A DNA stretch of 46,969 bases. Origin: a virus (taxonomy: Duplodnaviria; Heunggongvirae; Uroviricota; Caudoviricetes). The notes under the pieces were generated by a model. It was not told the DNA's origin and did no database searches. It worked only from the letters and a program-made list of their open reading frames with translations. The translations under genes were made by a program, and so were the position numbers. Location: the IMG/VR virus record IMGVR_UViG_3300045988_152627; one strand, given 5' to 3'. Positions 13,621 to 46,969 of this stretch are shown one piece after another. Each line of letters begins with the position of its first letter. The first letter of the stretch is position 1.

Positions 13621-14004
13621 TTATGCAGATGGATTTTGTTGTGCGGTGTTAAGGAATATCCCAACCTTCCGGCAAGCCAGATATACATCGGCAATCTTTG
13701 CTGATTCAGGAAGGATAACCGCATGTGCATTGAACATTCCGGTCAGCCATGCTGTTCCAACTTGCGCTGAATCAGTCGCATCAATACTGTGTTGAGCGAT
13801 ACAATACGGTTCTTTTGCCACCCCCTCACCAGAGAGATTTATTGGTGCTACAGTGACAACATTTGTTGTCTGATCAATACTGACAAAAGCAAGCAACTCA
13901 CCTCGATTTACTTTACCGCTGGCAAGTTTAATACTTGTTGTAATTGCTGGCATACCACCAGAAATAATCAGATTATCTGGTTCAAATGAAAAAGACTCTC
14001 GCAT
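13621..14004 (-). CDS. Head decoration protein, lambda gpD-like
   Basis: 127 aa between protease and capsid genes, the lambda C-D-E order. Confidence 0.55.
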   Translation of the reverse strand: MRESFSFEPDNLIISGGMPAITTSIKLASGKVNRGELLAFVSIDQTTNVVTVAPINLSGEGVAKEPYCIAQHSIDATDSAQVGTAWLTGMFNAHAVILPESAKIADVYLACRKVGIFLNTAQQNPSA

Positions 14005-26083: not shown

Positions 26084-26159
26084 TTGGTGGCCCCTACCGG
26101 ATTTGAACCGATGACCGTGCGATTATGAGTCGCCTGCTCTAACCACTGAGCTAAGGGGC
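26084..26159 (-). tRNA. tRNA with CAU anticodon, most similar to tRNA-Ile2 (ileX-type); elongator Met not excluded
   Basis: 76-nt cloverleaf GGCCCCTTAGCTCAGTGGTTAGAGCAGGCGACTCATAATCGCACGGTCATCGGTTCAAATCCGGTAGGGGCCACCA: 7-bp acceptor stem, D and T arms, CTCATAA anticodon loop, encoded CCA. Confidence 0.85.
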
Positions 26160-26329
26160 CATATTTGATCTGTTTGTCTGGTGTGGCGCCGCGCACGAAA
26201 ATCCCAGCCAATAAATTCAGGATTTTTGGGCGCGGCGGCATATCAGACAAACATGGTTGATGCGTGCGCCCATGAGAAAAGCGCATAGAATGTTGTAACT
26301 ATATATTTATATAATTATAGAAATATATA

Positions 26330-37279: not shown

Positions 37280-37295
37280 ATTCAACCATAAAAAA

Positions 37296-37311
37296 GGCCC
37301 CCGAAGGGGCC
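37296..37311. terminator. Bidirectional terminator hairpin GGCCCCCGAAGGGGCC
   Basis: Perfect GC-rich hairpin flanked by an A-run upstream and T-rich sequence on the opposite strand. Confidence 0.55.
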
Positions 37312-37877
37312 TAATCGCTACTTGCTGCTAATGTTTATCGTCACATTCAGAGCGTTATCAGTAATCTTCCAACCCTCCCCATGTGGCGTAAACAAAGCCC
37401 CAGTAACAACGATAAAAATACACATACAGTATTTTTTCATTGTATGGCCCTTACAGGCCGTTTCACGGCATCCCCACCGACGAAAACAACGCGAGAGCAA
37501 GCACGGCTGCTTGTGCTTGCATGTACGGCAACAGGAAATCCTCCCCTAAAGTCGGTGCCCGGGTGCGAATCGGCGGGAAGGTCCACAGGTATTTTACGAT
37601 TATTTTAAGATTAGTAATAGGAAATAAATTAAACGAAAAAACCAGTTTATTTTCACAAAATCAGTAACCTACCCACAATCTGTGAGTTTGCAGACACAAC
37701 AAGAACCACAATTTTTTGAAGCATAATAGTGGACTATTATTACCTTTTGGGTAAAATCAACTTGCTGCTTGTGCTTGCGTGGTTGTTTATACAACAACGT
37801 AATGCTGAAAGGACCGCGAATCCGATCAGCACGAAAGAACCGTCCTCAATAGGGCGGTTTTTTTGTTTCTTCACTCA

Positions 37878-38569: not shown

Positions 38570-38864
38570 TGTCTCTGTTAAAATCCCGCCGTATTGACAT
38601 GAATGCGCCATTGGTGGACACTTTCCGAGCCGTAGCAAAATCTACGGTCGGGATTAGCCTCCTGAATAACACGATGGCGCATACCGCGTTAGCGGTTTTT
38701 TTATGCGTAGAGCACTGTTACGCCCAAATTATGGTGGGTCGTACAGGGGCGGAGAAATCCGCGCCGGTTCGTCATTGTGTCCGGTAAGGCTAACCCTGTA
38801 CGGCTCACCACCATTTGATTAGCCTCGAATGGCGGTGATAGTTCCATATATTGGAGATATCACA

Positions 38865-44469: not shown

Positions 44470-45054
44470 AAATTTACTACATTGCGTATAAGACAAGTTT
44501 TCTATGTCTAATAGGAAATGATGTTTCTTATGTTTTATCGCGTTCTGATGGCTACTGTGTGCGTATTTATCGACGTTTATTGATAAGGCTCACCCCTTCC
44601 TCCTGCAAAGCCCGGCCGTAGGCCTTATTTCGGCCTTATATAAATTGATTTTGTATAGTTCGAAACGCGCCGTTTCGAAAAGGATGATCAGGCTGCACCA
44701 TGCCTCCGGCAAGTGCCGGAGGAGGTATATTTGAGCGTAGCGACTCGAACCGGCGCGAGCTTTAGCTCGCTGCAAGGGCGAACATATTCACAGGCAAAGC
44801 CTGTGTAAGTTAAATAAAGAAAGTCTTAATAAAAGAAAGTGATTTTGCATTTATTTGTTTAGTGCATCTATTATAAAAAACCATTTGCATATACATATCA
44901 AAACTGTGGATAACTTGATTAGCTGATGCCTGTAAAGGCGATATTTACGCTGTGTTCAAGTTTAGAAAAAATCAATTCAGCCTGTTTTTTGAACAGATAT
45001 TTTATTGCGACGTAGATAATCCTCCGGTAAAACCGGATTCATCATTCAGGTGGG
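44470..45054. promoter_or_regulatory. Candidate plasmid replication origin (oriR-like) downstream of repA
   Basis: Non-coding region with an AT-rich stretch (44800..44900) next to a consensus DnaA box; position relative to repA as in IncFII replicons. Confidence 0.5.
44905..44913 (-). promoter_or_regulatory. DnaA box (TTATCCACA on the minus strand)
   Basis: Plus-strand TGTGGATAA, exact match to the DnaA box consensus. Confidence 0.6.
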
Positions 45055-45903
45055 TTAATGCTGGAGTGATTTCCAGGTCTTTCTTAGCCTGTTATAACGC
45101 TGCTCAACGAGGGATCGTAAATATGCAAGGTCAGCTCCAGGATACATGCCATCAGCAAATTCCTGGCTAACCTCTCTAGTGATTTGATGACGAAGTTCGG
45201 CCTCTCCCTTTTCCCGAACAAGACGCGCAGCTCTCTCCGCTGCTTTCTGTTTTGCCTTTATCTCTCTAGCCGTCTTCCTCTGACGCCATACATTCTCCAT
45301 CTGCTCCTGAATAACAATACGCTTATAATCAGCCTCCGTTATCGCTTTTTTAAGCCGTTCGCTATTCTTCGCATTGAAGTAATTAAGTTTCTGGCTAACC
45401 GCACGTCTCCATGCTTGTTCAGTAATACCAACGGTTTCCAGAAGTTGATCACGAATCTCTATTTTCGCTGGCCAATACTGTTTATTCACCCGATCCCAGC
45501 GACGTTCATAATCAATAAAACCTAACGCTTTCAGTTGCGACAACGCCCTTGTACAGCGCGTTATAGACTTGTTCCCAGCTTCGGATACGGTAGACAGGCC
45601 GCAAAAATCAGCCAACGCCTCAGCACTGGCCAGAACCCGCTTAGAAATGATGTTTACATGGTGCAAAATCGCAGCAATCACAGCATTAATCGCCCGACGA
45701 CGATGCTCGTTTATCCGGCGTTTCCGCTCTGACGGTTGATTAACGTAGAACGCAACCTCACACGTAAGATCACGACCATTAATGCGCTGTAAAGCATCAG
45801 ATAACACCAGCGGCAGCTTGTGCGTATGGTGCTTTGGAGGCTGGAACTCCGGCGACAAATTACAAACGTAAGCTGAACGTAGAGACTGCATTGGTCTATC
45901 CAT
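45055..45903 (-). CDS. repA: Plasmid replication initiator RepA, IncFII RepA1 family
   Basis: Segment RRAINAVIAAILHH...GNKSITRCTRALSQLKALGFIDYE parallels RepA1 RRAIDALLQGL...GKLSITRATRALTFLSELGLITYQ; start taken at the internal ATG 45903 (about 282 aa); the longer ORF to 46041 overlaps the antisense RNA. Confidence 0.8.
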   Translation of the reverse strand: MDRPMQSLRSAYVCNLSPEFQPPKHHTHKLPLVLSDALQRINGRDLTCEVAFYVNQPSERKRRINEHRRRAINAVIAAILHHVNIISKRVLASAEALADFCGLSTVSEAGNKSITRCTRALSQLKALGFIDYERRWDRVNKQYWPAKIEIRDQLLETVGITEQAWRRAVSQKLNYFNAKNSERLKKAITEADYKRIVIQEQMENVWRQRKTAREIKAKQKAAERAARLVREKGEAELRHQITREVSQEFADGMYPGADLAYLRSLVEQRYNRLRKTWKSLQH

Positions 45904-45947
45904 ATGTTCGCTCTTGCGTCCACGGAAAACCAACGTATAATGGGAGT

Positions 45948-46036
45948 TGTCGAGGCGCCCATGGATTGTTGTTGGTTTTTGTTTCTTTCCGTGGATGTCG
46001 CAAGAAGCCCGCAGATTTATCTGCGGGCTTTTTGTT
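45948..46036 (+). ncRNA. CopA-like antisense RNA candidate (countertranscript to the repA leader)
   Basis: Plus-strand promoter TTGCGT-N16-TATAAT (45914..45941), stem-loop AAAACCAAC/GTTGGTTTT, and terminator hairpin AGCCCGCAGA-TTTA-TCTGCGGGCT plus T-run (46006..46036). Confidence 0.5.
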
Positions 46037-46077
46037 TCCATATCTGGTCACTTTCCAACCAGACACCCACAATCATA

Positions 46078-46092
46078 ACCACGTTACGTGGT
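46078..46092. promoter_or_regulatory. Operator-like palindrome ACCACGTTACGTGGT upstream of the repA leader
   Basis: Same CCAC-N5-GTGG pattern as the repressor operators, between the invertase stop and the repA control region. Confidence 0.4.
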
Positions 46093-46222
46093 TTTAAGAG
46101 AACTCTACCACAACACTTTCGGTCATGCACGAAGTCTCTCACTGATCGAACGATAATCCACCAGTAAAAGGATCTAAATTGGATCTCGTTTTGCGAGCAT
46201 CATACTACTGGCCTAACTCCAG

Positions 46223-46777
46223 TCAATGATTCCCAGCCGGAAACCTGCGGTAAAGCGTGGATAAGGTAACATCGAAGATAATCGCTATCCGCTTACGTGA
46301 AACACCATTCGCAATAAGCCTTCCGATCTGTTCCCATTGCTCTGGTGCCAGTTTTGAGCGACGTCCTCCTATCCTGCCGTTAGCCCTTGCCACCGCCAAT
46401 CCTGCACGCGTTCTTTCAATCATATTTTCCCGCTCCATCTCTGCGACTGCACTCAGCATCGTGTAGGCAAAGCGGCCAATTGAAGTGCTGATTTTTATCC
46501 CTTCCGTAATTGAAATAAACTCAATGTCGTTTGATAAAAAATGGTTAAGTAAATCAACAAGATGAATCAGAGAACGCCCCATTCGGTCCAGCTTCCAGAC
46601 AATAACCGTATCGCCCGGTCGTAACACCTTCAGTAGCTTATCAAGTCCTGGTCGTTTTGATTTAGCACCGGATATTTTATCTTCAAAAATCCGGTCACAT
46701 CCTGAACTCCTGAGCGCCTCCAGTTGTAATTCCAAATTCTGGTCAAAAGTTGACACCCTCGCATAACCATATTGCAT
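46223..46777 (-). CDS. Serine-recombinase DNA invertase, Gin/Cin/Pin/Hin family
   Basis: 184 aa starting MQYGYARVSTFDQNLELQ (catalytic Ser motif); C-terminal HTH GGRRSKLAPEQWEQIGRLIANGVSRKRIAIIFDVTLSTLYRR closely parallels Gin. Confidence 0.9.
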   Translation of the reverse strand: MQYGYARVSTFDQNLELQLEALRSSGCDRIFEDKISGAKSKRPGLDKLLKVLRPGDTVIVWKLDRMGRSLIHLVDLLNHFLSNDIEFISITEGIKISTSIGRFAYTMLSAVAEMERENMIERTRAGLAVARANGRIGGRRSKLAPEQWEQIGRLIANGVSRKRIAIIFDVTLSTLYRRFPAGNH

Positions 46778-46841
46778 ACTTTCTAAACCGCGATTGTTGC
46801 TAAAAGCGGGAAAAAATATCGTTCAGACGACACAGAGGCAA

Positions 46842-46867
46842 TTCGCAAAAACCTCGGTTTGCAGGAA
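46842..46867. other. gix/cix-like invertase crossover site, right copy
   Basis: TTCGCAAAAACC-TC-GGTTTGCAGGAA; inverted relative to 103..128, sharing one half-site and core; 65 bp upstream of the invertase start. Confidence 0.6.
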
Positions 46868-46969
46868 ACGGTAAACAGGGCTGGTAACGCCGTGCAAAAA
46901 AATGGCGATACCTTGTCCGGTGGGCTTACTTTTGAAAATGACTCAATCCTTGCCTGGATTCGAAATACT
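46851..46969 (+). CDS. Start-codon-less alternative tail-fibre C-terminal segment (partial, runs off window end); also the right arm of the inverted repeat
   Basis: Plus-strand frame encodes LGLQETVNRAGNAVQKNGDTLSGGLTFENDSILAWIRNT, identical to the minus-strand tail-fibre frame at 1..119; no start codon or RBS. Confidence 0.65.

Follow-up and report, generated by a model that had tools for sequence, protein, structure and literature searches.

The replicon region and the start of repA

The window, a stretch of 46,969 nt catalogued as a viral record (IMGVR_UViG_3300045988_152627), carries a replication initiator gene on the minus strand. The open reading frame 45055..46041 (328 aa) encodes a member of the IncFII_repA family (Pfam PF02387, E = 1.3e-43, 149.8 bits, residues 55-321). 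The protein passed the NCBIfam model RepA_IncFII_LM (NF040977, 231.5 bits relative to a cut-off of 70, residues 60-321) and fell below the cut-off of the incFII_RepA equivalog TIGR03474 (78.6 bits vs 446.9), and its relatives in plasmids beyond its own group were at most 37.5% identical. The gene upstream of the repA region encodes a DNA invertase. A DnaA box was observed at 44905-44913, and the origin probably lies 3' of repA. Opposite the repA leader, on the plus strand, there are a promoter-like sequence, a hairpin and an intrinsic terminator (Table 1).

Region 44800-46300 matched approximately 57-60 plasmids of 46-52 kb at 97-98% identity, which were non-mobilizable, mostly from E. coli, and included the 48.5-kb plasmid of E. 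coli ATCC 25922, NZ_CP009073.1, where the predicted RNA corresponds to roughly 13,880-13,970 of the record. The Yersinia phages vB_YpM_39, 41 and 44 were likewise among the matches. NZ_CP032086.1 was 97.8% identical to the window over the 1.5-kb replicon region compared and is listed (as CP032086.1) in a preprint that names the p-p47 family (10.64898/2026.08.19.745698; bioRxiv, 19 August 2026). On the sequence of this 1.5-kb region, the window belongs with the p-p47 phage-plasmids. The replicon region was present in 71 of 5,426 complete E. coli genomes (1.3%), every time on plasmids. The 94-kb record NZ_CP032086.1 might have shown two loop variants residing together, but it was uninformative: its gene order and its identical protein accessions indicate that it holds the ATCC 25922 element twice, head to tail. 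NZ_CP103765.1 was considered as the preprint's p-p49 and rejected, as it comes from a different collection.

Table 1 Features of the repA leader region and of the predicted antisense RNA gene
Feature	Position	Strand	Sequence or structure	Basis or proposed role
-35 hexamer, antisense promoter	45914..45919	+	TTGCGT (ACGCAA on the sense strand)	Read from sequence
-10 hexamer, antisense promoter	45936..45941	+	TATAAT, 16 nt after the -35	Read from sequence
Predicted antisense RNA, ~85-90 nt	45948..46037	+	6-nt 5' tail, hairpin 1, terminator hairpin, U tail	5' end inferred from the -10
Hairpin 1 (recognition hairpin)	45954..45999	+	GGCG.CCAUGGA / UCCGUGG.UGUC; 22-nt U/G-rich loop, 45966-45987	
Intrinsic terminator	46000..46037	+	16-bp stem (46000-46015/46020-46035), loop UUUA, tail UUUUUGUUU	
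Segment A, repA leader	46004..45971	-	CUUGCG..CCACGGAAAG..ACCAAC (also given as CUUGCG..CCACGGAAA..ACCAAC)	Proposed antisense target and 5' arm of long-range helix
Segment C, repA leader	45934..45913	-	GUUGGUUUUCCGUGG-A-CGCAAG	3' arm of long-range helix; proposed start-region sequestor
Segment D	45906..45889	-	CAUAUGGAUAGACCAAUG	Holds ATG1, GGA (possible Shine-Dalgarno) and ATG2
Proposed repA coding sequence, 278 aa	45055..45891	-	Starts at ATG2 (45891..45889)	Sole start codon in frame in every lineage
Candidate upstream repA promoter	46199..46226	-	TTGACT-N16-TATGAT	Promoter scan, 10/12 matches
Candidate second repA promoter	46102..46110	-	Extended -10, TGGTAGAGT	Spotted by eye

An earlier note on this DNA had supposed that the long open reading frame includes leader sequence, and the comparison with relatives bears this out. 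Its first codon, ATG 46041, is in frame with repA only at loop lengths that are multiples of 3. L009 and L019-L021 have it in another frame, and ATC stands in its place, followed by in-frame stops, in lineages of the Salmonella type, L012 and their relatives. Since this ATG is thus not maintained as an in-frame codon, codons 1 to 46-50 of the PGAP gene model are best read as leader. The Pfam and NCBIfam models begin at RepA residues 55-60, and the annotated RepA of the Salmonella relatives is 277 aa long. RefSeq RepA is approximately 50 residues overlong in nearly all E. coli records examined, which also have no RNA annotated at this site, and we suggest that both be corrected.

The other candidate, ATG1 (45903..45901), is conserved as a sequence, but only the E. 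coli type and L045 have it in frame with repA. It was rejected as a universal repA start, since the L003/L004, L012 and L051 lineages carry it in a different frame. The candidate Shine-Dalgarno sequence of ATG2 is only a GGA, with a better AAGAG available to ATG1. The ATG1 site was costly to open in both states of the leader discussed below (11.5-15.3 kcal/mol in the free state).

Farther upstream, the two candidate repA promoters are both conserved as promoter-like elements. The TTGACT and TATGAT hexamers were kept in relatives with a diverged spacer, and the motif TGnTA(G/A)AGT was kept in all lineages, including L046/L049/L050. No conserved RNA structure was found over the second candidate, and between 46042 and 46222 there was no annotated or conserved copB-like open reading frame.

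A predicted antisense RNA opposite the leader

The promoter-like sequence on the plus strand had been called near-consensus for sigma70. The two hexamers and their 16-nt spacing are present and the -10 is perfect, but the description was too generous for the -35, which matches TTGACA at only 3 of 6 positions. For that reason the promoter was absent from the list produced by the promoter scan. The pattern TTG-N19-TATAAT occurred twice in the window against 0.75 expected, with at least two occurrences in 18 of 100 shuffles, and the match by itself is not beyond chance. It is credible only because it is conserved: across 12 aligned lineages both hexamers and the 16-nt spacer length were invariant and the spacer sequence was variable. 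In the distant group L046/L049/L050 the promoter reads TTGCAT-N18-TATAAT.

Folding, a check proposed in the earlier note, gave -41.4 kcal/mol (z = -6.1) for 45948-46040, and none of 200 shuffles was as stable. The stem-loop and strong terminator that had been described opposite the repA leader are present, with slightly corrected coordinates. Hairpin 1 consists of a lower stem of 4 bp (45954-57/45996-99) and an upper stem of 7 bp (45959-65/45988-94), and the terminator hairpin follows directly 3' of it as a separate structure. The transcript and its ends are inferred from these elements.

In order to assess conservation, relatives were taken from plasmids, viral contigs, metagenomes and protein-anchored contigs, which yielded a comparison set of 17 different antisense units; RepA identity to the window in the lineages that carry them is 62-100%. 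The hexamers, spacer length, stems and terminator were nearly invariant, and variation was concentrated in the upper stem and loop of hairpin 1. Beyond alignment columns 15-47, which hold the upper stem and loop, only four columns varied, and two of these form a compensatory terminator pair. The loop ranged from 5 to 22 nt, with differences that were often CAA/GTT units, and the same fold was found in all variants. It measures 22 nt in the window, 16 nt in the common variant and 5 nt in the Salmonella one. When the structure was imposed on the 17 variants, 99.0% of cells held standard pairs, as opposed to 44-49% with slid partners, and four pairs were altered on both sides. For hairpin 1, 97.8% of cells were paired, with both-side changes at three pairs. 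The terminator stem was 100% paired, including one compensatory change from A-U to G-C. A covariance model built from the 17 variants scored 99.2 bits on the window.

The pairing in hairpin 1 is also strand-specific. Standard pairs made up 96.9% of cells on the plus strand and 68.0% on the repA strand, because the G.U pairs (39 of 124) turn into C.A on the latter. This asymmetry points to selection on a plus-strand transcript; neither a palindrome acting as DNA nor a hairpin in the sense strand would produce it. A repA-strand hairpin was also considered as a classical CopT stem-loop and set aside as weak, with only 68% of cells pairing. If there were no RNA gene, the inverted repeats would be DNA sites related to an operator or the origin, and the terminator would serve other transcription. 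That the promoter match is not significant alone is compatible with such an arrangement. Against it stand the strand asymmetry, which is an RNA signature, the invariance of the hexamers and spacer length, and the lack of a plus-strand gene upstream that the terminator could end, and we consider it extremely unlikely. Conservation, pairing and strand asymmetry instead support a predicted cis-antisense RNA gene opposite the repA leader, with its own promoter, recognition hairpin and intrinsic terminator, much as the earlier note had it. On these sequence comparisons such an RNA very probably exists and has a role here, for which negative copy-number control of the IncFII_repA-family initiator is plausible and the obvious candidate.

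A proposed switch in the repA leader

Three segments of the repA leader, designated A, C and D (Table 1), are predicted to pair in two alternative ways. A helix of 15-21 bp between A and C was present in the minimum-free-energy fold of the leader. Among 12 lineage representatives, 97.3% of cells in this structure were paired compared to 29-43% for slid controls; the pair counts for segment A were 96.3% and 92.6%. Double changes were found at three A:C pairs (G-C/A-U/C-G, A-U/G-C and A-U/U-A). L045 retains a perfect 15-bp helix although three of its A:C pairs differ on both sides from those of L001, which has the common E. coli-type helix (CCACCGGAAUCCAAC:GUUGGAUUCCGGUGG in L045 vs CCACGGAAAACCAAC:GUUGGUUUUCCGUGG in L001), and in the E. 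coli, L012 and L045 types the cognate A:C duplexes were the most stable combinations. The exceptions were L054, with a C.A mismatch, and L051/L052, with a shorter helix.

When the antisense target was blocked, C was predicted to pair with D. In each of five lineages with different D sequences, which share ancestry, the C:D duplex was in the same register and was modestly more stable than duplexes with shuffled D (p = 0.015-0.069). In thermodynamic rather than co-transcriptional folding of RNAs of approximately 360 nt, blocking the target raised the opening energy of the ATG2 site (-15 to +12) from 5.7-8.4 to 10.5-17.0 kcal/mol in nine of nine lineages, a rise of 2.6-10.3 kcal/mol per lineage.

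These predictions suggest the following mechanism. The plus-strand promoter would be constitutive and produce an RNA fully complementary to the repA leader. In free repA mRNA, pairing of A with C would leave D open for ribosomes, with the start codon at 45891 and the GGA just upstream. Since the hairpin of the antisense RNA carries the C sequence GUUGGUUUUCCGUGG, both it and C are complementary to A, and the two should compete for it. The antisense RNA would bind the nascent leader, with first contact through the variable loop, the invariant 5' tail or both, and occupy A. C would then fold onto D and hide the start region, and RepA would not be made. A leader peptide would be dispensable for control, and the variable loop would decide which plasmid variants inhibit one another. 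The whole of this, a negative copy-number regulator acting through an A/C/D switch, is our best explanation and a probable one on the sequence evidence. The three-segment switch independent of a leader peptide is the best-supported of the proposed mechanisms, and we give it about an even chance.

Other mechanisms would employ the same RNA differently. Under classical R1-type control, antisense RNA blocks a tap-like leader peptide and repA is coupled to translation of that peptide, as has been established for R1 in the accounts of PMC5717011 and PMC8053102. Here RepA belongs to the IncFII_repA family, and in the E. coli type an open reading frame of 55-58 codons (TTG 46072 to TAG 45896) ends 5 nt after ATG 45903. 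In L046/L049/L050 an upstream open reading frame of 63-162 aa overlaps the repA start. However, the frame ending at TAG 45896 is not conserved as a leader peptide; it lacks an ATG, and the TTG with which it would start is located upstream of the terminator hairpin. An ATG in segment B (AUGGGCGCC) is absent in L051/L052, and the open reading frame that it begins can be as short as 32 or as long as 83 codons. Reading frames across the target are also shifted by loop indels (8, 13, 4 and 7 nt). An all-frame search for open reading frames ending near the repA start found them in some variants only, with none in L003, L004, L009 or L019; a conserved leader peptide coupled to repA, which the earlier note had proposed looking for, was not found. 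Control of the R1 type is thus quite unlikely in this replicon.

Alternatively, the antisense RNA may act mainly by RNase III cleavage or decay of the duplexed leader, by transcriptional interference or by direct occlusion, in which case the A:C and C:D pairings would be incidental or would reflect the promoter spacer only. The duplex would span approximately 90 bp, and the antisense promoter lies inside the leader, convergent with repA and 15 nt upstream of its ribosome site. In addition, segment C corresponds on the DNA to the spacer and -35 of that promoter, so its conservation may partly be a DNA-level constraint. A spacer, however, needs a fixed length and not complementarity to a sequence 40-70 nt away, yet three A:C pairs are double-changed, and the A/C/D logic recurs with unrelated sequences in L046/L049/L050. 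The preprint also reports that repA transcript levels were unchanged in copy-up mutants (10.64898/2026.08.19.745698), which argues against these routes, and overall they seem unlikely.

The same transcript data argue against transcription attenuation of the pT181/pIP501 type, in which antisense binding induces a leader terminator upstream of repA. The leader is capable of alternative folds, and the terminator hairpin forms in the repA-sense RNA too. In the sense direction, however, this GC hairpin is followed by CUUCUUGCG and forms with or without antisense binding, and no U tract follows the C:D hairpin. Attenuation was rejected because of this missing U tract, and we regard it as very improbable.

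Related replicons and copy-up mutants

The layout at this locus had been likened to the CopA/CopT system of IncFII plasmids. The likeness holds for an antisense RNA gene opposite the repA leader; it does not extend to the RNA family, a conserved tap, the form of the hairpin or the long-range helix. Neither the Rfam model for CopA (RF00042, gathering threshold 60 bits) nor that for PK-repBA (RF01089, 45 bits) matched in 45700-46300, even at E <= 10, and neither matched in the relatives L045, L050 and L051 (CopA at E <= 0.1). In a true IncFII plasmid used as a positive control (CP088844.1), CopA scored 106.6 bits and an annotated tap adjoining it overlaps repA. Judged by sequence, the antisense RNA is not a member of the CopA family. 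Matches to Thr_leader (27.4 bits) and CsrC (22.7 bits) over the region were sub-threshold terminator look-alikes and were dismissed as chance.

Like CopA/CopT of R1/NR1, the replicon would have a cis-antisense RNA of approximately 90 nt, with its own promoter within the repA leader and an intrinsic terminator at its 3' end, and with proposed post-transcriptional control of an IncFII_repA-family initiator. Further likenesses are an origin probably downstream of repA, possible tandem repA promoters, and copy-up mutations upstream of repA as described in the preprint. In contrast, stem-loop II of CopA is small-looped and also serves as terminator, whereas the loop here is 5-22 nt and the hairpin is separate from the terminator. 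There is also no conserved tap, and RepA is not an incFII_RepA equivalog. A copB-like gene was not apparent in the interval separating the RNA from the upstream promoter. The covarying long-range leader helix is not part of the R1 model as PMC5717011 and PMC8053102 describe it, in which tap translation is inhibited and repA is coupled to tap.

A second point of comparison is the RNAI and repBA (repYZ) pseudoknot of IncB, IncI1, IncK and IncL/M plasmids. IncI1/IncB control employs a leader peptide and a pseudoknot (PMC5717011, PMC8053102), and in the IncB type the antisense RNA competes with a long-range pairing that favours rep translation (Asano and Mizobuchi 1998, in PMC8053102). Here, too, the antisense target is predicted to take part in long-range pairing just 5' of the rep ribosome site. 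The RepA also passes RepA_IncFII_LM, and the nearest RepA outgroup (pKPC_CAV1042-44, L058, 37% identity) carries PK-repBA at 56.7 bits. Unlike PK-repBA, this leader has no leader peptide (repB/repY) and no UUGGCG loop motif. Its helix of 15-21 bp involves a stem arm and part of the loop rather than a short loop pseudoknot, and inhibition is proposed to come from the C:D hairpin, a separate element. Neither the R1 nor the IncI1/IncB mechanism fits as it stands; by analogy, the A/C/D switch logic appears closest to the pseudoknot competition of IncB/IncI1. If true, the switch would place a variant independent of a leader peptide beside tap coupling and the pseudoknot in IncFII-related replicons, and its clean covariation makes it directly testable.

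The covariance model also found full-length matches of approximately 31.5 bits (E ~1e-7) antisense to the leaders of L046/L049/L050, and no match in the IncFII or pKPC controls. The RepA proteins of this second group, one from Citrobacter freundii, are approximately 60% identical to that of the window. Segments A, C and D of this group have no sequence relationship to the window's segments, but an A:C helix is again predicted to form. With A blocked, C re-pairs with the start region and the opening energy increases by 3.9 to 10.5 kcal/mol. In this case, the regulated open reading frame is the upstream one that overlaps the repA start. Together, p-p47 and L046/L049/L050 may represent a separate antisense RNA family with a switch free of a leader peptide, in which the RNA mimics the sequestor C and competes with it for an anti-sequestor, A, the DNA of segment C doubles as spacer in the promoter of the RNA, and the loop is an incompatibility code that lets related phage-plasmids coexist, a proposal that we put slightly below even chances. 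Standard typing tools leave this replicon untyped, so the variable loop offers a possible marker along with an incompatibility hypothesis. Scans of a genome contig collection with RepA peptides and a DNA pattern returned no match, and two short-pattern scans of viral contigs returned unrelated matches only.

A copy-number antisense RNA in p-p47 has already been proposed in the preprint, where CopA/CopT was predicted by analogy to R1 and from RNAfold alone (10.64898/2026.08.19.745698). What the present analysis adds to that text is the assignment outside CopA, the lack of tap, the A/C/D switch, the hypervariable loop, the mis-called RepA start and the RNA of the second replicon group. According to the preprint, p-p47 occurs in clinical E. 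coli, and its raised copy number can lead to transient piperacillin-tazobactam resistance in a susceptible strain. Knowing the actual control circuit would show where copy-up mutations can arise. Wild-type copy number is given as 1.2-2.6, with mutants up to 404-fold more. The changes in these mutants are SNPs or a 3-bp deletion, located 58-86 nt upstream of repA. One copy-up mutant is mentioned with a change in a putative plasmid-borne transcriptional regulator. Transcript mapping, RNA coordinates and the repA start used were not found in the preprint's text.

The position of these mutations therefore depends on the start from which they were counted. Counted from ATG 45903, the interval is 45961-45989, exactly at hairpin 1. 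Counted from the start of the 326-aa PGAP open reading frame, it is 46099-46127, outside the antisense RNA and over the TGnTAGAGT promoter-like element. The genetic support in the preprint is real and compatible with either mapping, and it is not pinned to hairpin 1. If the mapping from ATG 45903 holds, a (CAA)n run would account for the recurrent 3-bp deletion. The preprint also describes wild-type and mutant plasmids that were both at high copy, which a simple change in loop specificity fails to explain. Among the natural variants, L022 is the common variant minus one CAA, and it presumably replicates normally.

RepA gene model and promoter-like elements

In the E. coli records examined, the RefSeq/PGAP annotation gives RepA a length of 326-328 aa, corresponding to 45055-46041 on the minus strand of the window. 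Comparison among relatives indicates that codons 1-46/50 of this annotated RepA are instead untranslated leader, overlapping a putative RNA gene that is unannotated. Two conserved promoter-like elements were located upstream of repA (Table). The extended -10 was retained as TGnTA(G/A)AGT across all lineages, including the distant replicon group (L046, L049, and L050, with RepA about 60% identical). If the numbering in the preprint on p-p47 phage-plasmids (bioRxiv 10.64898/2026.08.19.745698) starts from the long ORF, the copy-up mutations described there land on this element. GATC (Dam) sites are clustered immediately downstream of the upstream promoter, and the cluster was found at the equivalent position in most relatives, L046 and L050 included, with a single GATC in the related lineage L045. 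Transcription of repA may thus be tied to methylation state or SeqA.

Table. Positions of features in the window and of upstream ORFs in the distant replicon group.
Feature	Record	Position	Strand	Details
DnaA box TGTGGATAA	window	44905-44913		perfect; ~140 bp beyond repA stop
Variable leader hairpin	window	46040-46062		some compensatory changes
Invariant leader hairpin	window	46077-46093		AACCACG/CGUGGUU
Extended -10 TGGTAGAGT	window	46102-46110	-	promoter-like
TTGACT-N16-TATGAT	window	46199-46226	-	promoter-like
GATC sites	window	46144-46147, 46171-46174, 46182-46185
Serine DNA invertase	window	46223-46777	-	recombinase family; hin or pinE in relatives' annotation
Tail-fibre sequence	window	46778-46969
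tRNA-Met	window	26085-26160	-	anticodon CAT
ryfA	window	37290-37586	-	Rfam, 143 bits
isrK	window	38629-38702	+	Rfam, 65.7 bits
C4 antisense RNA	window	38727-38815	+	Rfam, 70.8 bits
ORF upstream of repA	L046	1028-1504		product 63-162 aa across the three records
ORF upstream of repA	L049	1016-1504
ORF upstream of repA	L050	1323-1514

Leader hairpins, overlapping ORF and probable origin

Read in the repA sense, the variable hairpin lies immediately upstream of the terminator hairpin of the predicted antisense RNA. The invariant hairpin is followed by TTTT on the plus strand and could act as a back-up terminator against antisense read-through. In the distant group, the ORF upstream of repA extends into the start of repA; the overlap is ATGA in L046 and L049 and 14 nt in L050. 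The L046 product matches PF02387, which gives the ORF the appearance of a partial RepA duplication serving as a coupled leader gene. Beyond the other end of repA, the DnaA box adjoins A+T-rich sequence, at a position where an IncFII-type origin would be expected.

Neighboring segment, RNA genes and a 94-kb relative

The invertase gene is directly upstream of repA and adjoins tail-fibre sequence. Tail-fibre and tail-fibre-assembly genes occur at this site in both orientations in related records, and the segment is probably one for host-range switching. Elsewhere in the window are a tRNA gene and three RNAs that reached the Rfam gathering threshold. One of these, the C4 antisense RNA, has its home in the P1/P7 immunity region, so its match suggests that this phage-plasmid carries a putative P1/P7-style immunity region.

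NZ_CP032086.1 (L060/L061), a linear 94-kb record and "outlier" of the p-p47 family, is not a larger variant. Its gene order and its identical protein accessions show two head-to-tail copies of the 48.5-kb element of ATCC 25922, as in an assembly concatemer or a dimer.
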